From the IMG/VR virus record IMGVR_UViG_3300025769_000149, positions 1-54,765 of that record: a DNA stretch of 54,765 bases. One strand, written 5' to 3'. The position numbers and the translations under genes were made by a program. The notes under the pieces are model-generated. The model was given only the letters and a program-made list of their open reading frames with translations. It was not told the DNA's origin and did no database searches. Source of the DNA: a virus. Its lineage: Duplodnaviria > Caudoviricetes. Positions 1,038 to 43,516 of this stretch are shown piece after piece (position 1 is the stretch's first letter; each line of letters starts with the position of its first letter).

Positions 1038-1766
1038 ATGGCATTTAAACTAAAAGCCGGTAATTCAGGCAACCCAATACATAAAAATTTCTCAACGTCA
1101 TTTAAGCACGGCGGACATAACTTAGGAAAAGGCGTTCCTGAAGATACGCCTCACTATAACAAGGAGGGTGGAGCACACACAGGTGGTGACTTCTGGTTCG
1201 AGAAGCAAGGTGACGCATCTGGCTGGACGCAAAAAGGAGGTCGTGTAGAAACGACTGAAGTCCCGCATACACCAGAGGGAGATGCTTACTATGCTAGTTT
1301 ATCAGATGAGGAGAAAAAAGCTGCAGACGAAAGGCAAATAGCAAGATCCTCTCAATTCATACCGCTAGAGGACGCGGGTGGTGAAACAATAGAGCCTATA
1401 ACTCCACGAGTTGGGACTCTACCGTCTCCAGAAAGAGATTTTGAATTGAAACCCTCAACCTCTAGCATCAAAGAATACGCTGGTAAACAAGAAGAAGAAA
1501 AAGAAAGTAAAACTGGCGGTAATCTTAAGTACGAACTTAAGCAGGTAGGGAAAGGAATTAAACACGGGGCTAAGCAAATTGGCACTGATGTAGGGAAATT
1601 CATCAAAAACATTGGCAAAGGTGTTGGAAAATGGTGCGACGCATACGGCTGTTACGAAGGAGAGATGCCTCAAAGCACAACGGAAACAGGTGATGACCCC
1701 GCTTTTGCTAAAAAATACGGTAAATCTACAAAAGGACGTGGATATACTATGAAAAACTGTAAATAA
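1038..1766 (+). CDS. MAFK-leader family protein 1 (hypothetical)
   Basis: starts MAFKLKAGNSGNPIHKNF; 242 aa, hydrophilic, with a KxxGKG amphipathic repeat. Confidence 0.8.
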   Translation: MAFKLKAGNSGNPIHKNFSTSFKHGGHNLGKGVPEDTPHYNKEGGAHTGGDFWFEKQGDASGWTQKGGRVETTEVPHTPEGDAYYASLSDEEKKAADERQIARSSQFIPLEDAGGETIEPITPRVGTLPSPERDFELKPSTSSIKEYAGKQEEEKESKTGGNLKYELKQVGKGIKHGAKQIGTDVGKFIKNIGKGVGKWCDAYGCYEGEMPQSTTETGDDPAFAKKYGKSTKGRGYTMKNCK

Positions 1767-1806
1767 AGTAGGGAAAATCCCTATACCAAACATAAAACCA
1801 TAAATA

Positions 1807-2097
1807 ATGACCTATTTATACTACAAGACGTCGACTTCGACGCACACAATGAAGCCAAGTAAACAAGAAATTGAGCAATGGACGCACATGTCTGACAAAT
1901 CTAACTGGCGAATTACCCAATTACCTAACGGATACTACCAAACAGAGGTTTCTCACCCTGCAATTGACGATAATTGGCACTCTGTAACCCGTAGAGAGAC
2001 CATGGAAGGTGCAGAATCCGCGATTGACGGCAGTATCGACTACTTTTCTAAAAAATTAGAGGCTACAAAAGGGCCGAAAGTAGTAAAAACTTTTTAA
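1807..2097 (+). CDS. hypothetical phage protein
   Basis: 96-aa ORF with AT-rich upstream region; protein-like sequence (WRITQLPNGYYQTE). Confidence 0.75.
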   Translation: MTYLYYKTSTSTHTMKPSKQEIEQWTHMSDKSNWRITQLPNGYYQTEVSHPAIDDNWHSVTRRETMEGAESAIDGSIDYFSKKLEATKGPKVVKTF

Positions 2098-2107
2098 TAT
2101 AAGAAAT

Positions 2108-2401
2108 ATGGCATTTAAAATGAAAGGCAGCCCTATGCACCGTAACTTCGGTGTTGGCAGCGCAACAAAAAAGCGTGGCGAAGATATGGAAGAGATGGAG
2201 AAAATAGACGCTACCGCTGCGTTTGATCCAGAGGGAGACGGTACAGGGGGAAGTGGTAAGAACTGGCAAGCAGCAATTAGTCTACAGCAAGAGACTGATA
2301 CAACCATTGGCGCTGATAAAAGTCTTAAGACGGGCGGATCTACTGTAGCTGATACTGTAAGTACTGACAAAAAGAAAAAAAGAAAGAGAAAAAACAAGTA
2401 A
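2108..2401 (+). CDS. MAFK-leader family protein 2
   Basis: MAFKMKGSPMHRNF; poly-basic C-terminus KKKKRKRKNK. Confidence 0.8.
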   Translation: MAFKMKGSPMHRNFGVGSATKKRGEDMEEMEKIDATAAFDPEGDGTGGSGKNWQAAISLQQETDTTIGADKSLKTGGSTVADTVSTDKKKKRKRKNK

Positions 2402-2403
2402 TC

Positions 2404-2673
2404 ATGGCATTTAAAATGAAAGGCTTCCCAAAACAGTCAGGTGTAGGTGGCGTTGAGGCTGAAGAGCGTAAAATAGAAAACATACCGACTAGCGCCCCTG
2501 GCTCTCAAAACCCTAGTTTTCCTGAAGTTTTGTATACCACAGACGGTAAAGCTGTGAAAAGTCAGAGCTTAGACGAAGGGGAGATGCCACTTAAGCCTAG
2601 TTCAGACAAGAACGGTAAATATATAACTTATCCTGGTAGAGGAAGACTCTACTACAAAAATCCAACAAACTAA
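2404..2673 (+). CDS. MAFK-leader family protein 3
   Basis: MAFKMKGFPK; 2 nt after the previous stop. Confidence 0.8.
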   Translation: MAFKMKGFPKQSGVGGVEAEERKIENIPTSAPGSQNPSFPEVLYTTDGKAVKSQSLDEGEMPLKPSSDKNGKYITYPGRGRLYYKNPTN

Positions 2674-2674
2674 T

Positions 2675-2959
2675 ATGGCATTTAAAATGACAGGCTACTC
2701 AGCCTTTGATAAAGAAGACCCTAAAACTATGCGCGTAGAAGTTGATCGCGTAGGATCTGATGGTGGAACCTTATGGGTAAATACGAATGAAGGCCCGCGT
2801 AAAGTTAAAGGCGGCGCTGCAGGTATCGCTGAAATTCAAGCAGGCGACATGGTGACAGTTAACGTTGGAGGCGGTGGTATGCTAACATTAGACGCTAAGG
2901 CTGCTGACGACGACGCAACTCACGACTTGCGTAAAAAAAAGACTAAAGCTAGCGCATAA
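2675..2959 (+). CDS. MAFK-leader family protein 4
   Basis: MAFKMTGYSAF; small beta-rich body, basic tail. Confidence 0.8.
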   Translation: MAFKMTGYSAFDKEDPKTMRVEVDRVGSDGGTLWVNTNEGPRKVKGGAAGIAEIQAGDMVTVNVGGGGMLTLDAKAADDDATHDLRKKKTKASA

Positions 2960-2996
2960 GCTAACTACTATAATTTAATTTAATTTACTATAATTC

Positions 2997-4568
2997 ATGG
3001 AATACAACTTACCTAGTGAGTTGATCAAACGTTTAGACTTTGGTCAAACCGCTAAAGAAAAAGTAATAGCTGGCGTACATAAGCTAGCACAAGCCGTAAA
3101 GAGCACATTAGGCGCATCGGGTAAATGCGTAATATACGAGGATGCTCGCGGCCGACCGGTGATCACAAAAGACGGAGTAACCGTTGCCCAAAGCGTAGTC
3201 TTATATGATCCGGTTGAAAACATAGGTGCTACCCTTATTAAAGAAGCAGCTAACAATACAGTGAAAGAAGCAGGCGACGGTACCACTACGGCTACCGTCC
3301 TTGCTGAAGCACTACTTAAAGAGGTAAACAAAGAAAAATATGCTGATGAATCTATTAGAGAAATCAAAGCAGGTATTAGTTCAGGCTTGGAGAAAGTTGT
3401 TAAACATCTTGAAGACAGGGCTATTGAAGTTGAAGGGAGCATGCTTAGCGCTGTTAGCGCGATTAGTTGCAATAATGATAAAGCCCTTGGAAGCGTTATT
3501 GCAGAGGCTTACGAAAAAGTAGGTAAGCATGGTGTCGTACTTATGGAGGAAGGTGACACCGAAGACACGCATGTGGAGTTAGTTGACGGAGTGCAGGTTG
3601 ATTGCGGGCTTACGTCTCCGCACTTTGTCACTAACACTGATAAGCATTTAGCAGAACTAGATAATCCCTACGTATTAGTAGTATCTAGTTTAATACCTAA
3701 CGTACGCAAAATACAAAACGTGTTAGAGCATGTCATCAAGACTGGACGAGCTTTACTTATCATAGCTCCAGTAGATCAGCAAGTGAAAGCCGCGTTGATG
3801 ATGAACAAGGTTAAAGGCAATATCAAAGTTAATATTATTGACCTACCTGGCTTTGGACCTACTAGAAAAGATGCTACAGAAGATTTAGCTATATTAACAG
3901 GCGCTACTATTATTAACGAAGAACTAGGTGATGATCTAGATCTTATTAGTGTAGATCATTTAGGAGAAGTAGAATACGCCGTTACTAGCGATACTAATAC
4001 AGTTATAACATTAGATGGTGTAACTGAGGATATAGAAAATAGGATTAAAGAGGTTAATAACAAAATCGCTGAAGAGAAAAACGGTTTTATTAAGAAAAAG
4101 CTAGAACAACGTCTAGCGACTCTTTCAGGTTCAGTAGGTATTGTTAAAGTAGGTGCTGCTTCAAAAGTAGAGCTTAAGGAAAAGAAAGATAGAGTCGAAG
4201 ACGCTATATATGCTACAAAGGCCGCGCTGCGAGAAGGTATTATTCCTGGTGGAGGTTCGGCGTTATGGTGGGCTTCTAAAAAAATTAAACCCACTAACGT
4301 GGGTGAGGAGATTCTCCTTGAGGCTATTAAGTCTCCAATGCTGACTATCCTAGATAACGCAGGTCTTACTAATGCTAAGTGTGATGGTAAAGACTATTGC
4401 GGTATTGATGTTATATCTGGTAAATGTACAGATATGCTAGACGTAGGAATAGTAGATCCGGTTTTGGTAACAAAATCGGCGCTGAAAAATGCTGTATCAG
4501 TAGTATCAACTATTATATCAGCTGATTGTGTAATTTCAAACGCTAGAGCAGATGAGAGCAATCAATGA
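2997..4568 (+). CDS. groEL: chaperonin GroEL (Cpn60)
   Basis: ITKDGVTVA, AGDGTTTATVLAEA, GIIPGGG, GIVDPVLVTKSAL motifs; 523 aa; lacks the GGM tail. Confidence 0.97.
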   Translation: MEYNLPSELIKRLDFGQTAKEKVIAGVHKLAQAVKSTLGASGKCVIYEDARGRPVITKDGVTVAQSVVLYDPVENIGATLIKEAANNTVKEAGDGTTTATVLAEALLKEVNKEKYADESIREIKAGISSGLEKVVKHLEDRAIEVEGSMLSAVSAISCNNDKALGSVIAEAYEKVGKHGVVLMEEGDTEDTHVELVDGVQVDCGLTSPHFVTNTDKHLAELDNPYVLVVSSLIPNVRKIQNVLEHVIKTGRALLIIAPVDQQVKAALMMNKVKGNIKVNIIDLPGFGPTRKDATEDLAILTGATIINEELGDDLDLISVDHLGEVEYAVTSDTNTVITLDGVTEDIENRIKEVNNKIAEEKNGFIKKKLEQRLATLSGSVGIVKVGAASKVELKEKKDRVEDAIYATKAALREGIIPGGGSALWWASKKIKPTNVGEEILLEAIKSPMLTILDNAGLTNAKCDGKDYCGIDVISGKCTDMLDVGIVDPVLVTKSALKNAVSVVSTIISADCVISNARADESNQ

Positions 4569-4809
4569 TTATATAGTGGTAGATAAGCAGAAAGCAGGGC
4601 CTAAAAAGATTGGAGGTCTTATTCTCACTGAAGATCTAGATCAAGACAATAGATATGTTAAGGCTACAATTATATCTACAGGAAACTTAGTTGAAGGCTT
4701 AAAAGATAACGATGTTATATATTACGACAAACACGCTGGGCATGGTATAACCTGGGCAGATACAATGTACCATGTGATCCGAGCAAGAGATGTTGTGTTA
4801 GTGGAGTAA
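4552..4809 (+). CDS. groES: co-chaperonin GroES (Cpn10)
   Basis: INDYIVV, KKIGGLIL mobile loop, DVIYYDKHAG, VIRARDVV; overlaps groEL by 17 nt. Confidence 0.9.
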   Translation: MRAINDYIVVDKQKAGPKKIGGLILTEDLDQDNRYVKATIISTGNLVEGLKDNDVIYYDKHAGHGITWADTMYHVIRARDVVLVE

Positions 4810-4837
4810 CTACTTCGCTAAACGTGTGATATATATA
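4805..4837 (+). promoter_or_regulatory. candidate phage promoter AGTAA-N14-GTGTRAY, copy 2
   Basis: AGTAA 4805-4809 and GTGTGAT 4824-4830. Confidence 0.6.
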
Positions 4838-4842
4838 TTAGA

Positions 4843-4884
4843 CCTAAACCTTAAATCACAAACCCTAAACGGTAAATCTTAAAC
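4843..4884 (+). repeat. six tandem degenerate heptamers NNWAAAY in a 5' UTR
   Basis: cctaaac cttaaat cacaaac cctaaac ggtaaat cttaaac with exact 7-nt period. Confidence 0.75.
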
Positions 4885-4907
4885 AATTAATAAATAAAAA
4901 TTTAAAA

Positions 4908-5825
4908 ATGACAAACGGAAATTTTTTGTATTTTGCGGAATCAGACGTAGAGACTGGTGGCCACATTGATGGTGAGCCAGAAGCTATTTGTTTTCCTGCA
5001 AGCGCATACATTGGCACTTTCCCTAGAACTGCTACTTCAGTCCTTGTAAAAGCAGAGGCTGGCGGTTATCAGTACAGTTTAATCATGGGCACTAACACCG
5101 GTAAGAATAAAGAGGTTGTTAAGGCTATGGATTCGATCGTGTACGCTAACGCGTCTCAAGGAAAGATGATCACTGTGTATGATGCTGAGGCTGGTACAGT
5201 TAAAGAAGCTAGAATCAACAAAGCCCTACAAGGTCTTGTGACAAGCGTTGCTGGGTTTAGTTGTAGGGCTGTAGGTCCTATTGAAAACAAGGTGAGCACT
5301 ACTGCTAGTGATTTTGGAAACTACGGAGCCGGTGTAGTAGGCACTAGCGCTACTCAACCAACTCCGCTAAACTACACTTGGCGACATGGTTCTGGTTACA
5401 TAACAGAAACGTTTATTGATATAACGGGTCTTGGTAGTGCTAATGACGCTGGTGATGCGATTGGACTCGCTGCTGGTGGTAGAGCTTTTTTCTCAGTAGG
5501 TAAACCGCAAGCCGCGGCTGTAGTTCCATATAAAGTGGAAATGACTTGCCTTGTTGTTCCAACATCTGGATCTAACAACTTGACGGATATTGATCTTTAC
5601 GCTAACTCTTCTGCTGACATTGAGTATGACGGCGCTGTTGATGGCGGTGGTGGTGATCAACTAATTAACAGTGGAACTTGGACAAAAGGTAAGACTTTAG
5701 TTCAAGAAGACAATGTAAACGATACGGTTTTAAACAAACCTCTTTATCTAGCCGCAGGTGCGACTCACAGTGGCGCTAACACGTTTACGGCGGGTAAGTA
5801 TGTCGTAAGAGTATACTGGGTATAA
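4908..5825 (+). CDS. putative virion structural or decoration protein
   Basis: 305 aa, Gly/Ala/Thr-rich, beta-rich C-domain; N-domain resembles 5853. Confidence 0.7.
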   Translation: MTNGNFLYFAESDVETGGHIDGEPEAICFPASAYIGTFPRTATSVLVKAEAGGYQYSLIMGTNTGKNKEVVKAMDSIVYANASQGKMITVYDAEAGTVKEARINKALQGLVTSVAGFSCRAVGPIENKVSTTASDFGNYGAGVVGTSATQPTPLNYTWRHGSGYITETFIDITGLGSANDAGDAIGLAAGGRAFFSVGKPQAAAVVPYKVEMTCLVVPTSGSNNLTDIDLYANSSADIEYDGAVDGGGGDQLINSGTWTKGKTLVQEDNVNDTVLNKPLYLAAGATHSGANTFTAGKYVVRVYWV

Positions 5826-5852
5826 TAATAACATTTAAAAAATAAAGAAATT

Positions 5853-6239
5853 ATGGCAAGATTATTATTTGCAAGCGGCGCTGGAATTGACGCTACAGGA
5901 AGAACGATAGACGCATGCTCAGTAGATGGAAGTGAACTTATAGGTGTAATGCCAGTAAGCGCTACTACTACAGAGGCAATTTTTAGAACTGACAACGGTT
6001 ACGCACCTAACACTACAAGAGTCGTTTTTACTCACGACGATACGCACGCTGTAGAAAGTGGCGCGTCAGGTCATAGAGTTAGAGAAATTGCTGAGGTATT
6101 AACTAAAGCAGCTTCTGCTGGCCCACACTCAGTTGTGGTAGATGTACTTGATTTTGACAATAACGTTAAAACACCAGGTTTAAACTTTGTGACTGGAATT
6201 AGTATCGAAGCTATGTCTGGATACTTCTGGAACACGTAA
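5853..6239 (+). CDS. putative virion protein, paralogue of the 4908 N-domain
   Basis: LLFASG...IGVMPVSATTT aligns with FLYFAES...IGTFPRTATSV. Confidence 0.7.
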   Translation: MARLLFASGAGIDATGRTIDACSVDGSELIGVMPVSATTTEAIFRTDNGYAPNTTRVVFTHDDTHAVESGASGHRVREIAEVLTKAASAGPHSVVVDVLDFDNNVKTPGLNFVTGISIEAMSGYFWNT

Positions 6240-6240
6240 G

Positions 6241-6681
6241 ATGAGACTGACAGCGCAAGATTTGCGTGATATGAATATCCTTAAGTATTACAGGCTCACG
6301 CGTAAGTGGGCCTGTAAGACTTATGGATTAACTGATGCTGATCTAGAGTTACTTATATATCTAGATCACAAGGGTAGATTTACCCGCAACGAATTTATCG
6401 AGGGTGCTTACACATATTCTTGGGATAAGAAAAGGTGGGAGAAACTTCGATCAGCTGGCTGGATAGAAGTTTGGCGACATAGAAATAGAACGAGTATTAA
6501 ATACTCTGTATTTAAAACGTCGTTTAAATGCTCACAGCTAGTAACACGAATATATCGCATATTACTAGGCGAAGAAGATATGCCAACTTCTGAACGTAGT
6601 ATTTTTTACAACAATAAATCGTATACAGATAAAGTCTATAACAAAGCTATAGACGATATGATACGAGATAAAGACAGATAA
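6241..6681 (+). CDS. winged-helix (MarR-like) DNA-binding protein
   Basis: YGLTDADLELLIYLDHKGRFTRNEF...WEKLRSAGWIEV pattern. Confidence 0.6.
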   Translation: MRLTAQDLRDMNILKYYRLTRKWACKTYGLTDADLELLIYLDHKGRFTRNEFIEGAYTYSWDKKRWEKLRSAGWIEVWRHRNRTSIKYSVFKTSFKCSQLVTRIYRILLGEEDMPTSERSIFYNNKSYTDKVYNKAIDDMIRDKDR

Positions 6682-6682
6682 C

Positions 6683-6853
6683 ATGGCTTTTAAAATGAAA
6701 GGGCCTTACCACAAGGCTTTTAAAAACGTTGGTAAATCAGGTATGAATGAAGAACCTTATAAAAAAGTTAAGCATAAGTCCAAAGAAAACGAAGGATGGA
6801 GTATGACTATTGAAAAAGGAGGTTCTTCAAAAGAGAAAACAGTCGTAAAGTAA
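6683..6853 (+). CDS. MAFK-leader family protein 5 (56 aa, absent from the ORF track)
   Basis: hand translation MAFKMKGPYHKAFKNVGKSGMNEEPYKKVKHKSKENEGWSMTIEKGGSSKEKTVVK; fills the gap; TAATG coupling to the next gene. Confidence 0.8.
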   Translation: MAFKMKGPYHKAFKNVGKSGMNEEPYKKVKHKSKENEGWSMTIEKGGSSKEKTVVK

Positions 6854-7227
6854 TGGCTTTTAAACTCGGTCGTAAACCTTTACCTGGCATTGCTCACAAC
6901 GGTCAACTAAATAAGAAACTTAACATTAAGCACAAAGATCTTGAAGAAGGCACTGTAGCAGAGGCTGTTAATGGCAACGAAATGGTAATAGACAAAGACG
7001 TACCTAAAGACAGTAGATTATACAAAGAAGCCGTAGCTCATGAGGCTGTTCATTGTAAAGAAATGGCTGAGGGCAGAATAGCTTATGGAAAAGACTGGGT
7101 TAGATCAGACGGTAAGACTTACCCTAGAAAAGACGGTAAGATAAAGTATAACGGCGAGTGGCACGAAGAGGGAAGCGAAGTATTTCCTTGGGAGCAACGA
7201 GCTATGAACGCAGAAAAATATGTCTAA
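6853..7227 (+). CDS. MAFK-leader family protein 6: zincin-like metallopeptidase
   Basis: MAFKLG start; AVAHEAVH (HExxH) with a downstream PWEQRA Glu. Confidence 0.75.
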   Translation: MAFKLGRKPLPGIAHNGQLNKKLNIKHKDLEEGTVAEAVNGNEMVIDKDVPKDSRLYKEAVAHEAVHCKEMAEGRIAYGKDWVRSDGKTYPRKDGKIKYNGEWHEEGSEVFPWEQRAMNAEKYV

Positions 7228-7366
7228 ATTCGCAAAAAGATTTTGTAAAAAATCACCGTTTAAACACGCGGTTACAGCTAGTGGGCACAAGCACGTTGAT
7301 GCTAAAGCGCCAAAAAAACCTGCGCCAGCTGGCGAGGTTGATAAATCAAAGTTAGAATTATTATAG
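7220..7366 (+). CDS. small basic protein (48 aa, absent from the ORF track)
   Basis: MSKFAKRFCKKSPFKHAVTASGHKHVDAKAPKKPAPAGEVDKSKLELL; fills the gap with an 8-nt overlap. Confidence 0.6.
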   Translation: MSKFAKRFCKKSPFKHAVTASGHKHVDAKAPKKPAPAGEVDKSKLELL

Positions 7367-7367
7367 T

Positions 7368-7580
7368 ATGTTTGAAATATTTAAAGACAATAACGAATGG
7401 AACGAAAAAGCAATAGTGGGCTTTGTAGCCTTTGCCCTTATGGTGGTGGTGATGCTTGTGGATACTGTATCTGGGGCCGTAGGTAAAGATTTAATAATTA
7501 ACGAATTTGTATACAACTCTTTTGTGTGGGTGGTTTTGGGATCGTTTGGAATTAGTGGTGTAGAAAAGTTTGCAAAGTAA
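7368..7580 (+). CDS. two-TM membrane protein (holin or antiholin candidate)
   Basis: two hydrophobic helices, AIVGFVAFALMVVVMLV and SFVWVVLGSFGISGV. Confidence 0.65.
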   Translation: MFEIFKDNNEWNEKAIVGFVAFALMVVVMLVDTVSGAVGKDLIINEFVYNSFVWVVLGSFGISGVEKFAK

Positions 7581-7810
7581 TGGATTTTATTGATAGAAAC
7601 TGGGTGTTATTTGAAGCTAACGAGATTAGCTCTATAATGTATAATAAGATGCACGAAAACTCTGCGGATGATCTTATATATAACGCAGACAGATCTAAAG
7701 CGTTTGGATCATTTTCTACATGCTCTGGTTGTAAGACACCTACATTTTTATCAGGTAAAACTATATACAGTTTCGAGGAGTTTGCGAATACACTTAACAC
7801 ATCTTGGTAA
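7580..7810 (+). CDS. hypothetical protein
   Basis: 76 aa, TAATG-coupled at both ends. Confidence 0.65.
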   Translation: MDFIDRNWVLFEANEISSIMYNKMHENSADDLIYNADRSKAFGSFSTCSGCKTPTFLSGKTIYSFEEFANTLNTSW

Positions 7811-8202
7811 TGAACTTTTTAACTAATTTATTTTCCGCTGGAGCTACTGAACTGGTTAAAGGTGTAGGTGGTGTATTAGATAACCTCACTACTTCTAAAG
7901 AAGAAAAGCTTGAAGCAGAACAAAAGATAAAAGAATTAGTAGCCAACTACGAAGTTGAGATGGAAAAGAATATTACATCTCGATGGGAGGCGGATGCAAA
8001 ATCTGACTCATGGCTTTCAAAGAACGTAAGGCCTATGGTTCTTATATTCTTAATAGTATGCACGATGCTATTGATATTCATTGATGCTGGTGCAATCAAT
8101 TTTAACGTGAAGGATTCTTACGTGGACCTTCTTCAATTAGTATTAATAACAGTGATCGGTGCATACTTCGGTGGTAGATCACTAGAAAAAGTAAAAAAAT
8201 AA
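7810..8202 (+). CDS. holin of the GTA 3TM-holin type
   Basis: SDSWLSKNVRP followed by TM helices and GAYFGGRS; ATG at 7810 preferred (TAATG coupling). Confidence 0.75.
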   Translation: MNFLTNLFSAGATELVKGVGGVLDNLTTSKEEKLEAEQKIKELVANYEVEMEKNITSRWEADAKSDSWLSKNVRPMVLIFLIVCTMLLIFIDAGAINFNVKDSYVDLLQLVLITVIGAYFGGRSLEKVKK

Positions 8203-8204
8203 TT

Positions 8205-8984
8205 ATGAGTAAATTTTTTCAAGCAGTAGTTAGGCCTGAAATGACTGTTACGGCTTTAAACGCTGGCAACATAACCGCTGGACAAATTCTATTTGACTTC
8301 GCTCAGTTTGATATACCTAATGGATCTGCTAGATTTTTAGGTGGTCACTGTTTGTATAGAGGTAAAAACGGAGCAGATTACACTCCAGTTGATTTTGAAG
8401 TATATTTTGCAAAGTCAGACAAAAATGGAACAGCTCCATTTCTTTCGGCTGATAGACGTGGTAGTGTAGATTCAACCTTAACTCAATGCGGTGCTGCGGA
8501 TTTAATTCAAAGTAGAACTTACGTTGACGCAAGCGTGGCTAGTAATGGCACTAGTTTAATATATGGCAACACAATTTTGATAGAGGCCTCTGGTGGTGCT
8601 TCTACATCTTCAACAATGCAAGATCTAGTAGTTACACCTATTTTCCAGGGAGTACCTAACACAGGTTCAGGCACGGGTTACACCAGTTTATACATGGCTG
8701 GTATATCTAAGGGTAATCATAACTGGGGACCTTCAACAATGACTGTTGATGGCACGATGTCTACAGATAGTCCAATACTTACTGTTGCTGATCTAGACGC
8801 AACAATAGCTTTAGCGCCTGGTGATATTTTAAGAGACGAAGATGACAATTTACTTGGTACGGTTAAACGTGTGGATAGCGCTACTCAAATAACGTTAGAA
8901 GATAATTTAGCCAACGCAAGCGCAGACGATAAGCTGGTTTTCAATACGACTCCTCTTACATTCGTGCTTGGATTTGAGCAATAA
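8205..8984 (+). CDS. putative virion structural protein
   Basis: 259 aa, beta-rich; GDILRDEDDNLLGTV module resembles the C-terminal region of the 2815-aa tail protein. Confidence 0.65.
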   Translation: MSKFFQAVVRPEMTVTALNAGNITAGQILFDFAQFDIPNGSARFLGGHCLYRGKNGADYTPVDFEVYFAKSDKNGTAPFLSADRRGSVDSTLTQCGAADLIQSRTYVDASVASNGTSLIYGNTILIEASGGASTSSTMQDLVVTPIFQGVPNTGSGTGYTSLYMAGISKGNHNWGPSTMTVDGTMSTDSPILTVADLDATIALAPGDILRDEDDNLLGTVKRVDSATQITLEDNLANASADDKLVFNTTPLTFVLGFEQ

Positions 8985-9018
8985 ACAATAAACAATTTTA
9001 ATTTAATACAATTTAATT

Positions 9019-9297
9019 ATGGGAAAAAAGAAAGAAAAGGTCATTGACCTAAAGCCAGAGAAGATCTCTGAAGAAGAGCTTAAAGAATTACAGCAAGTTG
9101 TAGCTGCTATTAATAAGTTGCAGTTTGATATTGGAACAATGGAAGTTCAAAAGCATAACGCTTTACACGCGTTGTTTCAAGGTAATGATAAGCTAAATGC
9201 AATGCAAGATAAATTTAATGAAGAGTACGGTACTGGTGATGTGAATATTCAGGATGGTACTATAAATTACAAAGAAGATGAGCCATCTGATTCGTAA
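9019..9297 (+). CDS. coiled-coil hypothetical protein
   Basis: KISEEELKELQ heptads, EEYGTGDVNIQDG. Confidence 0.75.
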   Translation: MGKKKEKVIDLKPEKISEEELKELQQVVAAINKLQFDIGTMEVQKHNALHALFQGNDKLNAMQDKFNEEYGTGDVNIQDGTINYKEDEPSDS

Positions 9298-9499
9298 GAT
9301 AACGATAGGTAAAGATTATAAAAATGATGCCATGCACTATTCTGTTGGACAGGAAGTGTATGGTGGTCATACCATTTGTGATATACTAGAGGAAAAAGAA
9401 AAATACTCAGTATATATTAGAAAGGGTGAAGCTGTAATTCCGTGGAAAGACTTTAATAAGAACATGGCTATATCAGTTGAGTATAATCTTGAGTATTAA
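9278..9499 (+). CDS. hypothetical protein
   Basis: 73 aa, overlap-coupled to both neighbours. Confidence 0.75.
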   Translation: MSHLIRKITIGKDYKNDAMHYSVGQEVYGGHTICDILEEKEKYSVYIRKGEAVIPWKDFNKNMAISVEYNLEY

Positions 9500-10089
9500 T
9501 GCAAGCACTCTATAATTTTGTTGTAGAACCTATAGGTGAAAGATACAACAATAATAAAAAAGTAGGTGATAAAGAACTAATACTTAACACAGAAATATTT
9601 AACCATCAATATATAAATCGAGAGGCCGAAGTTAAAATAACACCTCGTATAGGCTGTAACGATATTGATGTTGGAGATAAAGTTATATTGCACCATAACG
9701 TCTTTAGACGATGGCACAATATAAAAAGCAAAGAAAAGAACAGTAGATCTTACTTTAAGGAAAATCAATACTTTGTAGCTCCAGATCAAATATTTTTGTA
9801 TAAAAAAGATAAAGACTGGATTTGTCCTAATGGTTATTGTTTCATACAACCTATAAAAAGTAATGACAACTTTGACGTAGAAACTGAGAGACCGCTAATA
9901 GGTGTTGTTAAGTATTCTGACGGAACTGTTAACGTTGGGGATCTAGTTGGTTTTAACCCTAGCAGTGAATTTGAATTCGTTGTTGATGGGCAAAGAATGT
10001 ACAGAGTGTTATCTAAATATATTACAATTAAATATGAATATCAAGGAGACGAAGAAGAGTATAATCCAAGCTGGGCACAGAGCAGTTGA
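9499..10089 (+). CDS. tandem GroES-like domain protein
   Basis: two GroES-like halves: NFVVEP...IDVGDKVILHH and YCFIQP...GVVKY...VNVGDLVGF...DGQRMYRV. Confidence 0.65.
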   Translation: MQALYNFVVEPIGERYNNNKKVGDKELILNTEIFNHQYINREAEVKITPRIGCNDIDVGDKVILHHNVFRRWHNIKSKEKNSRSYFKENQYFVAPDQIFLYKKDKDWICPNGYCFIQPIKSNDNFDVETERPLIGVVKYSDGTVNVGDLVGFNPSSEFEFVVDGQRMYRVLSKYITIKYEYQGDEEEYNPSWAQSS

Positions 10090-10309
10090 AGAGTTGATCA
10101 AGGTAGCTAAAGAAGCTATTGTTGATTCAGACGATGATATATCAGCTGACAGACTTAAAAACGCCGCTGCCACAAAGAAGCTTGCTATCTTCGACGCCTT
10201 CGAGATATTAAACAGAATCCAAGAAGAAGAAAATCTTTTAGAAGGTAAAGCACCTGAAGAAAAGAAAGAGAGAGTATTTAAGGGTTTTGCTGAGGGTAGA
10301 TCTAAATAA
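10034..10309 (+). CDS. putative terminase small subunit
   Basis: helical 91-aa protein from ATG 10034 (MNIKETKK), TAATG-coupled to terL; call is mainly positional. Confidence 0.5.
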   Translation: MNIKETKKSIIQAGHRAVEELIKVAKEAIVDSDDDISADRLKNAAATKKLAIFDAFEILNRIQEEENLLEGKAPEEKKERVFKGFAEGRSK

Positions 10310-12525
10310 TGTACGAGCAGACTTTATATAAGATAATAGAACCTATAAAGAAAACAACTCTTACTAGATTAAATAGAGGTAAGAAGTGGAAGTACGGTTA
10401 TAACAAAGAGCACGACTTAGTAGTTCTTGCAAATAACGGGGTTATAGGTGATATATACGAAATACAAGGATTAAAGATAGCTTTGCCCAAAGCACCAAAA
10501 AACGTATTTAAACACGAGAAAAATAAGTGGGTTAAACAAGAGTATCCTAAAGAGCTATCTCGTATTAAAAATATATTCGACTGGAGAAACTATCCAGACG
10601 AGCAGAAAGAAAACTGGCACGACTATATTGACGAAGAATTTAGACGTAGAGAAGAAGGGTTCTGGTTCACTAATAACGGAGTGCCAACATACATAACGGG
10701 TACACACTATATGTACCTACAATGGAGTAAGATTGACGTTGGAGCTCCAGACTTTAGAGAGGCGAACAGACTATTCTTTATATTTTGGGAAGCCTGTAAA
10801 GCTGACAAGAGATGCTATGGGATGTGCTACCTTAAAAACCGTCGTTCAGGTTTCTCGTTTATGTCATCAGCTGAAACAGTTAACTTAGCCACTATATCAA
10901 GTGATAGTAGATATGGGATCCTTTCTAAGTCTGGTGCCGATGCAAAGAAGATGTTTACTGATAAAGTAGTACCTATATCAATAAATTACCCATTCTTCTT
11001 TAAACCTATACAAGATGGTATGGATCGTCCAAAATCCGAACTTGCGTATAGAGTTCCAGCTAGTAAATTTACTCGTAAAAAAATACAAGTAAACGAACAG
11101 CTCGAGGAGATAGCGGGTCTTGATACTACAATTGACTGGAAGAACACGGGTGATAATAGCTATGATGGTGAAAAGCTAAATTTGCTAGTACATGATGAGA
11201 GTGGTAAGTGGGAGAGACCTGATAACATATTAAACAACTGGCGAGTTACTAAGACCTGTCTAAGGTTAGGTAGTAGAATCGTCGGTAAGTGCATGATGGG
11301 TAGTACCAGCAACGCGCTTGATAAAGGTGGGGATAACTTTAAAAAACTGTACAATGATTCTGACGTATCAAGACGAAATGCTAATGGACAAACGAAGTCT
11401 GGCCTTTATTCTCTCTTTATCCCAATGGAATGGAACTATGAAGGATTTATTGACGAGTACGGACTTCCAGTCTTTGATAATCCAGGTGATGATGTACGAT
11501 ATGGACCAGACGGTGAATTAATAGACGTAGGTGTAATAACAAGTTGGGAAAACGAAGCGGAAGGTTTAAAAGATGATCAAGACGCGTTAAATGAGTTTTA
11601 TCGTCAATTTCCTAGAACTGAAGAGCATGCGTTTAGAGATGAGACTAAAAACAGTATATTTAATTTAATTAAAATATACGAGCAAATAGATTTTAACGAA
11701 GCTAGCAGACATAGCGCTCATGTTACTACTGGTAGTTTTGGTTGGGTAAATGGGGTAAGAGACACACAAGTTGTTTTCCACCCTGATCCATCAGGTAGAT
11801 TTAAAGTGAGCTGGGTTCCTCCAGGTCATTTACAAAATAAACAGATTGTAAAAAATGGAGTTAGATACCCTGCAAATGAGCATATCGGAGCCTTTGGCTG
11901 TGATAGTTACGACATTAGTGGTACTGTTGACGGTCGTGGTTCGAAAGGCGCATTACACGGACTAACAAAGTTTTCTTTAGAAGAAGCGCCATCAAGCACT
12001 TTTTTCTTAGAGTATATAGCTAGACCACAAACCGCAGAGATGTTCTTTGAAGATGTTTTAATGGCACTAGTGTTTTACGGTATGCCGCTACTCGCAGAGA
12101 ACAATAAACCTAGACTACTATACTATCTACGCCGCAGAGGCTATAGAGGATACAGTATGAACAGACCAGACAAAACTTTGAGAAAGTTATCTGTAGCCGA
12201 ACGAGAGGTTGGAGGTATACCAAACTCAAGTGAAGATATTAAACAGGCTCACGCAGCCGCTATTGAAATGTACATACAGAACTATGTAGGACATTTAGGG
12301 GACGGTGATTTTGGCACGATGTATTTTAATGATACATTACTGGATTGGAGCAGGTTTGATATAAACAAAAGAACAAAGTTTGATGCGTCTATAAGTTCTG
12401 GCTTAGCCATCATGGCTTGCAATAGACATTTATACGCACCAAACGCTAAGACTCAAAAAACACCTTTGAATTTGAATATAGCAAAATATGACAATGAGGG
12501 ATTTATGTCTCAAATAATTAAATAG
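10309..12525 (+). CDS. terL: terminase large subunit
   Basis: Walker A-like LKNRRSGFS, Walker B LLVHDESGK, motif III GSTSN, nuclease FGCDSYD and FDASISSGLA. Confidence 0.92.
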   Translation: MYEQTLYKIIEPIKKTTLTRLNRGKKWKYGYNKEHDLVVLANNGVIGDIYEIQGLKIALPKAPKNVFKHEKNKWVKQEYPKELSRIKNIFDWRNYPDEQKENWHDYIDEEFRRREEGFWFTNNGVPTYITGTHYMYLQWSKIDVGAPDFREANRLFFIFWEACKADKRCYGMCYLKNRRSGFSFMSSAETVNLATISSDSRYGILSKSGADAKKMFTDKVVPISINYPFFFKPIQDGMDRPKSELAYRVPASKFTRKKIQVNEQLEEIAGLDTTIDWKNTGDNSYDGEKLNLLVHDESGKWERPDNILNNWRVTKTCLRLGSRIVGKCMMGSTSNALDKGGDNFKKLYNDSDVSRRNANGQTKSGLYSLFIPMEWNYEGFIDEYGLPVFDNPGDDVRYGPDGELIDVGVITSWENEAEGLKDDQDALNEFYRQFPRTEEHAFRDETKNSIFNLIKIYEQIDFNEASRHSAHVTTGSFGWVNGVRDTQVVFHPDPSGRFKVSWVPPGHLQNKQIVKNGVRYPANEHIGAFGCDSYDISGTVDGRGSKGALHGLTKFSLEEAPSSTFFLEYIARPQTAEMFFEDVLMALVFYGMPLLAENNKPRLLYYLRRRGYRGYSMNRPDKTLRKLSVAEREVGGIPNSSEDIKQAHAAAIEMYIQNYVGHLGDGDFGTMYFNDTLLDWSRFDINKRTKFDASISSGLAIMACNRHLYAPNAKTQKTPLNLNIAKYDNEGFMSQIIK

Positions 12526-12527
12526 AT

Positions 12528-14903: not shown

Positions 14904-14920
14904 TTATATAATATTTTATT

Positions 14921-16120
14921 ATGGAACAAAATAATCAAACAGATCTTGAGGAGGTGATCCAAGAGGTCGAAAACGAAACACCACAAGAAGAGGCTGTAGA
15001 ACAAACGCCTGAACTTGATTTAGAAAAATTTGACAGCAAAGATGACCCAGATGTTATTAAAGTTGATTTAAGCAAACCACCAACCAATGAAACTAAAGAA
15101 AGTAACCCTGACGACTCAGGAGTGGCTGGAGTCGATGAAAGTCCCGAGCCCACACAAGAACAAGAAGAAGTACAACCGCAAGGAGAAGTACAAGGAGAAG
15201 TACCAGTACTAGAGGAAGTAACAGAGGAAGAAGTTGAAGAGTTTAAAGAAGAGGTTAGCGAAGCTATAGATGAAGCCAAAGCTTCTGGCGAGCCACTTCC
15301 AGAAAACGTTCAAAAGCTTATTGACTTTATGGCTGATACTGGAGGAGATCTCGAAGATTACGTTAGGTTAAATAGGAATGTCGAGGATATTGATGATCAA
15401 GACGCTCTTAGAGAATACTATAAAGTTACTAAACCTCATTTATCTACTGAAGAAGTAGAGTTTTTATTAGAAGATAAATTCTCTTATGATGAAGACGTAG
15501 ATGGCGAGAGAGATATTAAAAGAAAGAAGTTAGCCAGAAAAGAGCAAGTTGCAGAGGCTAAAGCCTACTTAGACGGGCAAAAGTCTAAATATTACGAAGA
15601 AATTAAAGCTGGAAGTAAGTTGACAGAAGATCAACAGAAGGCAATTGATTTTTTCAACAGATACAATAAAGAGTCAGAGCAGACTCGTAAGATAGCTGAA
15701 AAAGGTAAATCTATTTTTAAACAAAAAACCGATCAGGTTTTTAATGACAAGTTCAAAGGTTTTGAATATAACGTCGGAGATAAAAAATATAGATTTAACG
15801 TTAAAGACGCGGATAGGGTAAAGGAATCACAAAGTGATATGAATAATTTCATCGGAAAGTTTCTTGATGAAAATCAAAACATGAGTGATGCTAAAGGTTA
15901 CCATAAAGGTTTGTTTACAGCCATGAATCCGGATGTCGTAGCTCAGCATTTTTATGAACAAGGAAAAGCGGATGCTATTAAAGAAAGTATGGCAAAAGCA
16001 AAAAACATTAACACGTCAGCAAGATCAACTCATAACGAGGCTCAAACTAGCGGGTTAAAGTTTAGAGTTCTAGGTGATGATTCTGATTCTTTAAAGTTCA
16101 AAATTAAAAGAAAAAAATAA
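14921..16120 (+). CDS. capsid scaffolding protein
   Basis: very acidic disordered N-half and helical C-half; lies between portal and capsid. Confidence 0.7.
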   Translation: MEQNNQTDLEEVIQEVENETPQEEAVEQTPELDLEKFDSKDDPDVIKVDLSKPPTNETKESNPDDSGVAGVDESPEPTQEQEEVQPQGEVQGEVPVLEEVTEEEVEEFKEEVSEAIDEAKASGEPLPENVQKLIDFMADTGGDLEDYVRLNRNVEDIDDQDALREYYKVTKPHLSTEEVEFLLEDKFSYDEDVDGERDIKRKKLARKEQVAEAKAYLDGQKSKYYEEIKAGSKLTEDQQKAIDFFNRYNKESEQTRKIAEKGKSIFKQKTDQVFNDKFKGFEYNVGDKKYRFNVKDADRVKESQSDMNNFIGKFLDENQNMSDAKGYHKGLFTAMNPDVVAQHFYEQGKADAIKESMAKAKNINTSARSTHNEAQTSGLKFRVLGDDSDSLKFKIKRKK

Positions 16121-29103: not shown

Positions 29104-29106
29104 ACA

Positions 29107-29139
29107 AGTAAATAAACACTAAAAAGTGTAACTATACCT
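29107..29139 (+). promoter_or_regulatory. candidate phage promoter AGTAA-N14-GTGTRAY, copy 3
   Basis: AGTAA 29107-29111 and GTGTAAC 29126-29132, ahead of the ejection-protein operon. Confidence 0.6.
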
Positions 29140-29159
29140 ATGTAATATAATTAAATACA

Positions 29160-29726: not shown

Positions 29727-30565
29727 GTTGGATAATGGCCGGAATTGCTGCGGTTGGTGCTGTGACGCAAGTTGTGCAAGCCGTAGACCAAGGTATAAAA
29801 TCAAAGGAAGCTAAAGAAAGAGCTGAAGCTGCGGAAGCGGAGCTAGACAGGCAAACAGAGATGCTGGATATGCTCGATACTAGTAACCCGTATATGAACA
29901 TGGAAAACGCTTTTGAAGATTTAACTGTTAACATGCAGCAGGCTGAGTTTGAGAGATCACAAGCTCTTCAGTCACAAGCTAATATTATGGATCAATTTAG
30001 AGAAGTAGCTGGAAGTTCTGGTATAGCATCGTTAGCACAGTCGCTAGCACAGCAAGGTCAACTCCAAGCGCAACAATCGGCCGCGTCTATTGGTCAGCAA
30101 GAAGCAAGAATAAACCAGCAAATCGCTGGCGAAGCCTCAAGAATACAGGACATGGAGCGTGAGGGAGACGTGATGTCTAGACAAATGGAGTTTGGTAAGC
30201 TAGAAACTAAAATAGGATTAACCGCAGAAGAAATAGCTAGAGAACGACAGCTACAATATGGCCATAGCGCTCAAGCAGCTGAATCAACTCAAGGTGCTGT
30301 TGAAGGTCTGGGTGACGCCGCGTCTGTGGCTGCTGCATCAGGAGCGTTTTCTGATAGAAAGTTAAAGACAGATATTGAGAAAATAGGTAGATCACCTAGC
30401 GGATTAACAATATACTCGTTTAAGTTTATAGACAAGTCTTTTGGAGAAGGTGTGTGGCAAGGCGTTATGTCAGATGAAGTACCTCAAGAACTTGTGACTA
30501 AACATTCTAATGGCTATGACATGGTTGACTATTCTAAACTAGACGTAGAATTTAAACAGATTTAA
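29723..30565 (+). CDS. internal virion/ejection protein with C-terminal peptidase S74 (intramolecular chaperone) domain
   Basis: hydrophobic N-terminus, Gln/Ala coiled coil, then FSDRKLKTDI...QGVMSDEV...GYDMVDY. Confidence 0.75.
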   Translation: MSWIMAGIAAVGAVTQVVQAVDQGIKSKEAKERAEAAEAELDRQTEMLDMLDTSNPYMNMENAFEDLTVNMQQAEFERSQALQSQANIMDQFREVAGSSGIASLAQSLAQQGQLQAQQSAASIGQQEARINQQIAGEASRIQDMEREGDVMSRQMEFGKLETKIGLTAEEIARERQLQYGHSAQAAESTQGAVEGLGDAASVAAASGAFSDRKLKTDIEKIGRSPSGLTIYSFKFIDKSFGEGVWQGVMSDEVPQELVTKHSNGYDMVDYSKLDVEFKQI

Positions 30566-30566
30566 C

Positions 30567-32072: not shown

Positions 32073-32088
32073 AATAAAATAAAGCAAT

Positions 32089-42033: not shown

Positions 42034-43058
42034 GTTTATTATTAACCTTACTATTTAGCTGTACACTACTACAAGCTCAAGAACTAAAGAAAGCATTTAA
42101 GTTTTCTACGTTCTACGCAGCTGTTAACGGAGGTAACTCCGTGTCGGATCAGACTATATACTCTGTTACTGATGGATTAACTCAAGAGACTATAGCGACT
42201 CCATTTGACTACAGTTTGTCTATGGGTGTACGTAAAATCGCTAGGTTTGGATACGAGAATAGAGCTAACGCTTTCTACGATGGAACAGAAACATCTTACT
42301 CTGCTGATGCTAATATAGGTAAGCGCAACGGTATAGAGTTTCTTGGAGAGGTTACATACGAAAGACAGCAAGGCCGGGAGTTCTTCAACCAGCACCACTT
42401 TTTTCGTTACATTGGAGATAAAGTTATGGCAAAAGTTGAATACCTTGAAGACGGGTTTGCAGACATCGAGTACTTCGAGGCCTCTCAAAGATATAGACTT
42501 AAGCTCGGTAAGAAGTTTTCTATCCACGCAGGAGTTGCTCAACGTATCTCAGAGCCCTATGGATATGATCCACTCGCTGAATGGAAACTTGCAAACGGAG
42601 ATATTCACTACACTTACCTCGCGCTTCAAGAAGGATATACTCACAACCTTACAACTGGAGAATATATGGCTCCAGACGGAACAGTTGTCGCTTCAAACAC
42701 TGAGGTCTGGGAAGCAGTCACTATCCCTGAAGTCTTATCTGAATACTCTGCTAGAAAAAGAAATGAACTTGCTCGCCAGTGGAATTACTCGGTGGTTGCC
42801 GGGTTCGACTTCTATCACTTTACAGAGGACTTCTGGTTCCACACTTGGGGAAATGTTATGCCCTACCATTACGACACAGGTGGGGAATATATGTATCACA
42901 ACACAGTGGACGGCCAGTGGCTTGACTACTCGGGCGGACTTATTTTCGGACACAGATTCAACAAACACATTGGAGTTTTTCTTGAAGGTAGATATAACAA
43001 ATACTGGAATAGGGAATGGTATAACTTTAAGTGTGGTGCAAACTATGTAATCTTTTAA
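42015..43058 (+). CDS. putative outer-membrane beta-barrel protein
   Basis: Sec signal (LLLTLLFSCTLLQA), aromatic-rich alternating strands, C-terminal ANYVIF with terminal Phe (BAM signal). Confidence 0.7.
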   Translation: MLLPRLSLLLTLLFSCTLLQAQELKKAFKFSTFYAAVNGGNSVSDQTIYSVTDGLTQETIATPFDYSLSMGVRKIARFGYENRANAFYDGTETSYSADANIGKRNGIEFLGEVTYERQQGREFFNQHHFFRYIGDKVMAKVEYLEDGFADIEYFEASQRYRLKLGKKFSIHAGVAQRISEPYGYDPLAEWKLANGDIHYTYLALQEGYTHNLTTGEYMAPDGTVVASNTEVWEAVTIPEVLSEYSARKRNELARQWNYSVVAGFDFYHFTEDFWFHTWGNVMPYHYDTGGEYMYHNTVDGQWLDYSGGLIFGHRFNKHIGVFLEGRYNKYWNREWYNFKCGANYVIF

Positions 43059-43061
43059 GAT

Positions 43062-43346
43062 ATGGCTACTGATCAATATAATAAAGGTCCGCTAAGAATA
43101 ACAGAAGAGGCCTATGAAAGACGCAATAAAAAAATGCGCAAAGATAACCCTGGTATGGGTAAGAGACTTACCAAAGGTAAAAACAAACGAAGAATAAGCT
43201 TTGCTTGTAGATTTGGTGCACAGAACCACCCTATGAAGAATAAGAAAGGAGAGCCTACGGCTTATGCTAAAGCTTTAAAAAAGTGGGGTTTTAGTAGCGC
43301 TGCTGAAGCTAGAAAATTTTGTAACGCAAATAAAGAAAAGAAATAA
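43062..43346 (+). CDS. small basic hypothetical phage protein
   Basis: RRISFACRF...KALKKWG; highly Lys/Arg-rich. Confidence 0.7.
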   Translation: MATDQYNKGPLRITEEAYERRNKKMRKDNPGMGKRLTKGKNKRRISFACRFGAQNHPMKNKKGEPTAYAKALKKWGFSSAAEARKFCNANKEKK

Positions 43347-43516
43347 TGGCATTTAAAATGAAATCACCGCTTGCAAAAAAGAAATGCGGTCCTTATAGAA
43401 AGAAAAACGCTCAAGGCAAAGAACAAGGCGTGGACGGTATGGCTTGTTGGGAAGGCTATAGATATGCTGGAACAGAAGACGGTTCAGATAAGTGTGTACC
43501 AATAGGAAGAAAATAA
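43346..43516 (+). CDS. MAFK-leader family protein 7 (56 aa, absent from the ORF track)
   Basis: MAFKMKSPLAKKKCGPYRKKNAQGKEQGVDGMACWEGYRYAGTEDGSDKCVPIGRK; TAATG-coupled; fills the gap. Confidence 0.8.
   Translation: MAFKMKSPLAKKKCGPYRKKNAQGKEQGVDGMACWEGYRYAGTEDGSDKCVPIGRK

Follow-up and report, generated by a model that had tools for sequence, protein, structure and literature searches.

A short N-terminal tag common to unrelated small proteins and a zincin-like protein in an uncultured clade of Bacteroidota podoviruses

The 54,765-bp IMG/VR virus record IMGVR_UViG_3300025769_000149 (estimated to be 94% complete, and referred to in its entirety as the window) contains seven open reading frames (ORFs) on the + strand whose products begin with MAFK followed by methionine or leucine (Table 1). 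An earlier note on this DNA had drawn attention to these N-termini, and all seven are present where it placed them. Comparison with related viral contigs leads us to conclude that the seven ORFs very probably carry a clade-specific N-terminal tag that is selected as a peptide, is often accompanied by a second element consisting of Ser-Pro, a hydrophobic residue and Lys (SP-hydrophobic-K), and is common to about 100 otherwise unrelated proteins encoded in variable gene slots and to a conserved zincin-like protein.

Matches to the 12-nt pattern ATGGCNTTYAAR occur eight times in the window where 0.22 are expected, and none of 100 shuffled sequences reached eight, the maximum being a single match. 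The tag pattern itself has seven forward matches, none in reverse and none in the control, and MAFK is the commonest N-terminal 4-mer among ATG-initiated ORFs of at least 30 amino acids (aa), with seven copies compared to three for the next. The eighth nucleotide match (8010-8021, + strand; ATGGCTTTCAAA) was rejected as a tag member since it lies out of frame within the holin gene (7804-8202); the corresponding off-frame 24-codon ORF (MAFKERKA...) is also present in three relatives (L065, L068 and L099), and recurs because the holin is conserved. A listing of ORF N-termini in the window reveals no tag at the starts of the structural genes. When 70 nt to each side of the tagged starts are aligned, the only conserved block is ATGGC.TT.AAA and a few following bases. 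Two types of tag can be distinguished, with the cassette proteins having M-A-F-K-M-K-G/N and the zincin-like protein M-(G/A)-F-K-L-G.

Table 1. Coordinates of tagged ORFs, slot borders and other genes of the window.
Feature	Coordinates	Strand	Properties
Tagged cassette protein, 242 aa	1038..1766	+	Start MAFKLKAG..NPIHKNF; body without homologue in 120 related loci
Conserved anchor gene, left border of slot 1	1807..2097	+	In 38 of 120 loci, up to 88% identity
Tagged cassette protein, 97 aa	2108..2401	+	Start MAFKMKGSPMHRNFGVG (MAFKMKG type); only the first 20-40 residues recur, in 10 loci
Tagged cassette protein, 89 aa	2404..2673	+	Start MAFKMKG; body family in 7 loci
Tagged cassette protein, 94 aa	2675..2959	+	Start MAFKMTGYSAF; body a singleton
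Phage GroEL (2997-4568) then GroES (4552-4809), right border of slot 1	2997-4809	+	
Conserved 146-aa anchor (phrog_17028), left border of slot 2	6241..6681	+	In 63 loci, up to 100% identity
Tagged cassette protein, 56 aa	6683..6853	+	Start MAFKMKG; net charge +8; body a singleton
Conserved zincin-like protein, 124 aa	6853..7227	+	Zincin-type tag MAFKLG; HEAVH at residues 63-67; invariant Glu114
Possible degenerate member, 48 aa	7220..7366	+	Start MSKFAKRFCKKSPFK; SP-hydrophobic-K present, canonical tag absent; judged by eye
Holin, right border of slot 2	7804..8202	+	Pfam GTA_holin_3TM, 25.6 bits against a cut-off of 24.8
Giant ORF, 2815 aa	20280-28727	+	C-terminal crassvirus muzzle domain, borderline (27.3 bits against a threshold of 27)
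Giant ORF, 3314 aa	32089-42033	+	Present in 6 of 6 tagged genomes
Tagged cassette protein, 56 aa	43346..43516	+	Start MAFKMKSPLAKK (MAFKMKS); net charge +7
765-aa protein	44731-47028	+	C-terminal type IX secretion sorting domain, Pfam Por_Secre_tail, E 1.5e-11

The related sequences indicate that selection acts on the tag peptide rather than on the DNA encoding it. The synonymous differences from which the earlier note had argued for selection at the peptide level (GCA/GCT, CTA/CTC and GGC/GGG) are indeed present in the window; they are too few there to carry the point, and it is the relatives that establish it. Among 145 distinct MAFKMKG starts, the Gly7 codon is free in its third base (GGT 55, GGC 34, GGG 29 and GGA 27), and the substitutions at other positions (A/G/S, F/Y, K/R and M/L/I) are conservative in the protein and not in the DNA. 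The motif is also found displaced by a few residues from the N-terminus, as in MSKKGKRGFKMKG, MAYKPFKMKG and MSEYTPFKMKGH, and repeated internally, with 46 tag-like repeats of the A-M-K-M-K type in 12 proteins where 1.1 are expected. We take the free third base, the conservative nature of the substitutions, and the displaced and internally repeated copies as the grounds for peptide-level selection. Positions 1-7 each carry 3-4.3 bits of information, and later positions less than 1.2 bits.

A sample unbiased with regard to the tag is provided by 80 loci found through the zincin, which encode 62 distinct zincins and 92 distinct cassette proteins. The pattern M[AGS][FY][KR][LMI] starts 60 of these 62 zincins and KLG is present in 56, whereas the cassette proteins have [FY]KMK in 62 of 92 cases and KLG only once; the two subtypes thus stay distinct, with no homogenization by gene conversion or recombination. 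Together with the Gly7 codons and the conservative substitutions, these separate subtypes speak against conservation in relatives at the nucleotide level only. The second element that had been noticed in the window, (S/N)P followed by a hydrophobic residue, is likewise borne out: SP[AMLIVF][KRQH] occurs 62 times in 186 tagged proteins and 5.5 +/- 2.3 times in composition shuffles, an approximately elevenfold excess. Twenty-nine of the 62 copies begin at residues 11-20, and the ORFs at 204 and 7220 contain SPM, SPL or SPF.

The proteins behind the tag are diverse. When residues 13 onward were compared all against all by blastp (E<=1e-5), the 245 unique tagged proteins of the window and 120 related loci formed 101 body clusters, of which 78 are singletons; the seven window proteins fall into seven separate clusters, their bodies being unrelated. 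The 186 tagged proteins other than zincins have a median length of 120 aa and a lysine content of 16.3%, and 81% have a net positive charge; the description of the bodies as often basic is therefore apt for the relatives and only half true in the window, where the six non-zincin proteins have net charges of +1, +5, +3, 0, +8 and +7. Pfam scans of 100 cluster representatives yielded only DUF6321 (two members) and single weak matches, and PHROGs scans of the bodies gave families of unknown function and one 'virion structural protein' family (E 1.2e-6); family scans assign no function to the six non-zincin proteins of the window. The family of 2404..2673 is built of the tag, a variable linker and a conserved C-terminal part. 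The stop codon of 6683..6853 overlaps the start of the zincin gene at 6853-7227, and 43346..43516 occupies a third slot located after the 3314-aa giant gene.

One cassette protein, encoded at locus L061, illustrates the modular construction of the group. It consists of the tag joined to a module related to the N-terminus of Cellulophaga phage phi4:1 gp040 and to a second module found in small proteins of pelagiphages and cyanophages. The three homologues of these modules that were translated start MAIRKK, MTIRKT and MKGCGI and are untagged, and since the homologues have other N-termini, we conclude that the tag was joined to imported modules. The phi4:1 gp040 protein is annotated as a virion structural protein from tandem mass spectrometry (MS/MS), and its module in one tagged protein is the sole hint of a virion location. 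We also note that the product of ORF 43062-43346 (+ strand), just upstream of the tagged gene at 43346, is untagged (it starts MATDQY) and contains NPG..K...RRISFACR, which by eye resembles the 'NPGSK...RRKSFCARS' module of tagged, pelagiphage and cyanophage proteins.

The tagged genes are concentrated in two or three hypervariable slots bordered by conserved genes. Slot 1, between ORF 1807 and GroEL, is empty in 20 of 34 loci and holds one to five ORFs in the other 14, and by our reading of the listing approximately 32 of the 36 inserted ORFs are tagged. Slot 2, between ORF 6241 and the holin, was compared in 43 loci and nearly always contains the zincin gene and zero to four tagged genes. 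Identity is as high as 100% in the flanking genes, the inserts lack homologues, and both slots are polymorphic between related phages through presence, absence and replacement of tagged genes. The earlier proposal is supported in part, namely as to a modular leader on unrelated and rapidly turning over bodies; it does not extend to 6853-7227, a conserved zincin-like protein and not variable cargo.

The tag characterizes a single uncultured, abundant clade of podoviruses of Bacteroidota in which GroES follows GroEL. A 20-nt MAFKMKG pattern matches at least 120 IMG/VR contigs. One or more homologues of window genes other than the tagged ones are encoded at 118 of the 120 loci that were fetched, the two exceptions being an 11-codon ORF and one 50-aa ORF; 65 of the loci have TerL (at up to 93% identity), 63 the zincin, 63 ORF 6241 and 51 GroEL. 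Five near-complete relatives (G001-G005) encode 6, 1, 10 credible (11 listed), 1 and 2 tagged ORFs, and 0, 0, 0, 1 and 0 in the reversed-sequence controls. None of five GenBank relatives has a tag match at an ORF start, and we therefore reject the idea that the tag is a general trait of the phage lineage; it belongs to this single clade and not to marine Bacteroidota phages at large. The nearest of the GenBank relatives, uncultured podovirus MW202828.1, shares the virion module, GroEL and GroES, and ORF 6241 with the window, has one reverse tag match, equal to its control, and contains neither a tagged gene nor another recurrent N-terminus. Tag variants specific for individual genomes and co-varying with a receptor were not seen, the F/Y and K/Q variants being mixed within single genomes. 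Our literature search found no description of the motif and the motif strings gave no phage paper; supplementary tables were outside that search.

A host origin of the tag was considered and rejected. In 596 Gb of prokaryote genomes there are 74 pattern matches, which is roughly the level expected by chance, and no credible N-terminal leader among them. Twenty-two of the 74 represent an internal MAFKMKGRVGDSPIIG stretch of a conserved cellular enzyme, located at least 208 codons past the nearest in-frame stop where this could be measured, and the remaining matches are in short, off-frame or high-GC chance ORFs. The 22 internal MAFKMKGRVGDSPIIGAG matches are mostly in Bacteroidota metagenome-assembled genomes (loci such as L153, L155, L165 and L192), in an enzyme that may resemble an asparaginase-type Ntn hydrolase; its likeness to the phage tag may be coincidental.

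The phage is a Bacteroidota-type podovirus, with a host very probably in the Bacteroidota, as judged from its TerL relatives, the muzzle domain, the type IX secretion system (T9SS) sorting domain, and gene starts with an A-rich upstream context and no Shine-Dalgarno block. TerL (phrog_6681), the portal (phrog_6547) and a virion structural protein (phrog_13704) are recognizable in the window. By TerL, MW202828.1 is 64% identical, followed by Flavobacterium Elemoviruses (47%) and Maribacter phage Panino (42%), and more distantly by Cellulophaga podoviruses phi18:3 and phi38:1 (37-38%) and Tenacibaculum phage Gundel_1 (30%); TerL relatives infect Flavobacteriia. The sorting domain on 44731-47028 suggests a phage protein that is exported via the T9SS of the host, and supports the Bacteroidota assignment. 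A tblastn search with the 3314-aa protein gave no match in MW202828.1, a genome with a giant coding sequence (11.6 kb) of its own; protein 9019-9297 is likewise present in all six tagged genomes and absent from MW202828.1. GenBank phages gave no match to window positions 1-12000 (megablast) nor to ORF 4908-5825. The GroEL-then-GroES order, together with the similarity to Cellulophaga podoviruses, matches the 'GroEL>GroES' virioplankton contigs described by Marine et al. 2017, as far as the consulted parts of that report go (PMC5649160). This order is the reverse of the cellular one, and the two genes overlap by 17 nt (4552-4568).

The tagged gene at 6853-7227 is predicted from its sequence to encode a small, conserved, HExxH...E zincin-like protein with its own tag subtype M[AG]FKLG, newly recognized here. 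Residues H63, E64, H67, E114, A38, R92 and G107 are invariant in 54 sequences, and F3 of the tag is at least 90% conserved; the HExxH motif is present in 61 of 62 and in 119 of 120 family members in two sets. E114 lies in an invariant PWE motif, and as a glutamate downstream of HExxH, the residue that serves as third ligand in gluzincins, it is a candidate third metal ligand. A profile search of a library clustered at 90% identity gave 7993 matches at E<=0.001 among 8000 candidates scored, and none of the sources consulted by sequence provided a name for the family. The curated Pfam thresholds are not reached by any of 54 family members, and the window protein matches no Pfam family at E<=1. 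The sub-threshold matches (M91, M90, eCIS_core, DUF6782 and M78) are all to metallopeptidase families, with M91 matched by 15 of the 54 members, M90 by 13 and eCIS_core by 12 (best E 0.0046). In the Protein Atlas only the family's own viral clusters score 0.9 or above, and the SprT-like, M78 and DUF3920 clusters at 0.85-0.87 are leads only.

An AlphaFold2 (AF2) model built from 54 sequences has a pLDDT of 76-93 for the body and places residues 1-21 in a disordered segment, and a family member with a short linker gave the same outcome, with residues 1-6 disordered. The best Foldseek matches are minigluzincins (E 0.13-0.9), and VIA-align reports PprI (Z 5.8; root-mean-square deviation 4.2 over 90 residues), SPRTN (5.3), the VgrG2b effector domain (5.2) and ERAP1 (5.0). 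These structural matches are weak, and almost all are zincins. The protein is tagged in each of six clade genomes examined, and no zincin homologue was found in GenBank phages (two zincins searched) or in MW202828.1. Apparently leaderless zincins with MG[RK]ER starts, which make up 8 of the top 120, were rejected; the DNA reads MSYKMGKERR, and gene callers chose the internal methionine. An unusual 218-aa family member (P0001), encoded on an 827-bp contig, has a tandem duplication of the N-terminal half of the zincin and two HExxH motifs.

Contact between the zincin and the tag was modelled with zincin residues 22-124 (54-row alignment) and the N-terminal 40 residues of tagged proteins (100-row alignment). 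The complex scored 0.43, and the best of three controls 0.01, with contact agreement of at least 52% and partner pLDDT of at least 41. In calibration, 58 of 80 solved complexes passed the mark, as did 2 of 110 mismatched pairs; scores at or below 0.60 included only 7 of the 80 solved complexes and both of the passing mismatches. The prediction thus gives weak support, a small push, for a zincin-tag contact.

In phage T4 a capsid targeting sequence (CTS) loads polymorphic internal proteins, and the leader is removed by the prohead serine protease. We tentatively favor, from the analogy with this system, the explanation that the tag is a CTS-like address label that would give its bearers one common fate, most likely as virion cargo, and that the zincin recognizes or processes it. 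A conserved phage-encoded partner would read the label, for which the alternating hydrophobic and lysine residues (M-a-F-k-M-k) might be suited by binding as an added beta-strand; the tag bearers would enter the procapsid or virion as co-injected cargo, and the zincin would be a co-addressed enzyme recognizing or trimming the tag. Virion cargo is ranked first because a short leader, diverse bodies and polymorphic loci recall the T-even phages, and because phages of this type have the capacity for cargo. A fuller version is more doubtful: a plug-and-play addressing system in which MAFKMKG, with an optional SP-hydrophobic-K, leads to particle loading and co-injection, a new small metallopeptidase recognizes or trims the tag, and the slots hold an exchangeable arsenal of effectors such as DNA-coating or anti-defense proteins.

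Several observations weigh against the address-label explanation. Virion location and tag cleavage are both predictions only, and the GenBank phages searched include no cultured phage with the tag or the zincin, so that no proteomics applies. The position of the tagged genes is upstream of TerL, next to the chaperonin and holin genes, and outside the portal-to-tail module, and in the untagged MW202828.1 the portal (51%), the scaffold-like protein (39%) and the major structural protein (46%) all have homologues, such that a capsid-side receptor is not apparent. Among the window proteins scanned, which did not cover every ORF, none was assigned to a prohead protease family. The tag is disordered and not docked in the cleft in cis in both zincin monomer models, and by the calibration of the tool a complex prediction passing in this way will in most cases be false, except where the pairing was probable beforehand. 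In two genomes (G002 and G004) the zincin is the only tagged ORF, which fits a zincin-centered function as well as it does cargo loading. Finally, the Ala2 codon is skewed (GCA in 103 of 145 starts, against a background of 0.27), reflecting some preference at the nucleotide level.

The competing explanation that fares best, although we consider it unlikely, is that the tag is a recognition or cleavage site for the zincin within the infected cell, providing for timed activation, release or destruction of accessory proteins with no packaging involved. The zincin and the tag co-occur and are both absent from MW202828.1 and all GenBank phages searched, the zincin is the universal and sometimes the only bearer of the tag, the complex prediction points weakly in this direction, and the alternation of hydrophobic residues and lysine would suit a strand-like binding mode in the zincin cleft. 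Against this, the tag of the zincin itself (KLG) is consistently unlike that of the cassette proteins (KMKG), it is undocked in both AF2 models, the activity is predicted only, with no Pfam family at its curated threshold, and the question as to why so many unrelated proteins need one protease is left unexplained.

A poorer fit, and one we regard as distinctly improbable, is that the tag addresses a host component, acting as a membrane-associating or host-protein-binding motif or as an N-terminal stability signal that gathers accessory or anti-defense proteins at one site. The composition of the tag, with Phe or Met and Lys and then Gly, presumably recalls short membrane-targeting sequences; the bodies are hypervariable, as are host-interaction genes, and a Bacteroidota host is indicated by the Flavobacteriia-infecting TerL relatives and the T9SS sorting domain on a phage protein. 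However, near-invariant residues across about 100 families exceed the usual needs of lipid binding, the 596 Gb of prokaryote genomes contain no host protein with such an N-terminus, and sister phages of the same host class lack the tag.

We give little credence to a purely nucleotide-level role, either as a translation-start cassette suited to initiation in Bacteroidota, which dispenses with a Shine-Dalgarno sequence, or as a short homology block through which cassettes recombine into slots. The 20-nt core is A/T-rich, cassettes shuffle between fixed slots, and in addition to the Ala2 skew, AAA and TTT are slightly over-used among the tag codons for Lys and Phe, which are otherwise near genome usage. 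However, untagged genes of the window likewise have GCA more often than any other codon in second position (7 of 49), so that the skew looks like a general start-context preference, and untagged genes have the same A-rich upstream context. There is no conservation upstream of the tagged starts, the structural genes, which are presumably highly expressed, have no tag, and the free Gly7 third base, the conservative substitutions, the distinctness of the two subtypes and the displacement of the motif by up to ~8 residues and its internal repetition are features of a peptide.

There is equally little to recommend the notion that the N-termini have no tag function and are the remnant of one paralogous family, expanded by serial duplication, whose bodies diverged as the start was retained by chance or weak constraint. 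The genes are tandem and adjacent, many bodies are of low complexity, and some share longer N-terminal stretches such as MAFKMKGSPMxRNFG. This is countered by the number of body clusters, by the steep fall in information content beyond residue 7, by the presence of the tag on a folded zincin family, and by the modules of the L061 protein, which have homologues in pelagiphages, cyanophages and a Cellulophaga myovirus. Least probable of all is the earlier suggestion that tagged proteins are directed by their leader to the GroEL/GroES chaperonin of the phage: slot 1 adjoins GroEL, and GroEL is within the fetched flank in 51 of 120 loci, but MW202828.1 encodes both GroEL and GroES and has no tag, and most bearers look disordered and Lys-rich, and would make poor chaperonin clients.

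Two further features of the window are worth recording. The product of 14921-16120 (+ strand), a gene at the scaffold position located between those for the portal and the major structural protein, is extremely acidic in its N-terminal half and rich in Lys at its C-terminus, and one may speculate that it is an electrostatic partner for the Lys-rich tagged proteins. The sole block of minus-strand genes (49861-54611) encodes a class II-like ribonucleotide reductase, a DUF1064 protein and a MazG-domain protein, and is probably an early or nucleotide-metabolism module.

The new elements here are a putative CTS-like address tag with a new sequence, in a new phage group and with a far larger set of bearers, and the new zincin-like family associated with it. 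If the tag is an address label, it would be the second natural example, after the T4 CTS, of a very short signal for loading a capsid or particle. The tagged phages are widespread in aquatic metagenomes, as can be seen from the number of matches to the zincin family alone, and the address-label explanation, if true, would assign some 100 families of viral 'dark matter' proteins to a function class, establish a new small-metallopeptidase family in viruses, and offer a seven-residue handle with which to load foreign proteins into particles of Bacteroidota phages. Even if the fate of the bearers differs, this is a directly testable short linear motif system on many unrelated proteins of one virus clade.

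Among known systems, the zincin-like protein is like the minimal zincins (the minigluzincins selecase, jannalysin and abylysin; IrrE/PprI; Wss1/SPRTN) in having an HExxH helix after a small beta-sheet within about 100 residues, a likeness that is weak (Foldseek E>=0.13, Z<=5.8), and unlike them the C-terminal half of 6853-7227 is beta-rich with the invariant PWE motif and there is an N-terminal tag. Encapsulins, which are cellular nanocompartments, employ a short terminal cargo-loading peptide, usually C-terminal, to address unrelated cargo into a shell of the HK97 fold. In the extracellular contractile injection systems (eCIS) PVC and Afp, according to the consulted parts of the two reports, N-terminal signal peptides load unrelated effector payloads into a phage-derived particle (PMC11495950; bioRxiv 10.1101/2023.11.13.566157). 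Loading there is into the tail tube and is aided by the AAA ATPase Pvc15. A further likeness lies in the sub-threshold eCIS_core matches of some zincin family members, although the zincin of the window itself has none.

Closer in virion type are the crassviruses, with the capsid and tail of crAss001 holding ~5.5 MDa of cargo proteins, as described in the consulted parts of PMC10172136. The same source provides the points of likeness, namely the Bacteroidota podovirus build, internal cargo storage and a muzzle gatekeeper, the muzzle domain of the window being at threshold. In contrast, the crAss001 cargo proteins are large and conserved and not small and hypervariable, and those parts of PMC10172136 describe neither a shared leader nor cleavage. 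Similarly, a shared leader is not mentioned in the consulted parts of the report on the GroEL>GroES contigs (PMC5649160).

The nearest parallel in genetic pattern is with the T-even phages, whose internal proteins are diverse, share only the conserved CTS, and are encoded at polymorphic loci, as far as the consulted parts of PMC3012670 go. As in those phages, a short conserved N-terminal leader is found on otherwise diverse, small and often basic proteins, and the genes for its bearers are in loci that are polymorphic between related phages (PMC3012670). The phage type and host differ, the setting here being a Bacteroidota podovirus with a muzzle-like giant protein, in which a zincin-like protein carries the tag and no serine prohead protease was identified among the proteins scanned. 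The T-even leader is found on a handful of body families, whereas the tag described here is carried by approximately 100.

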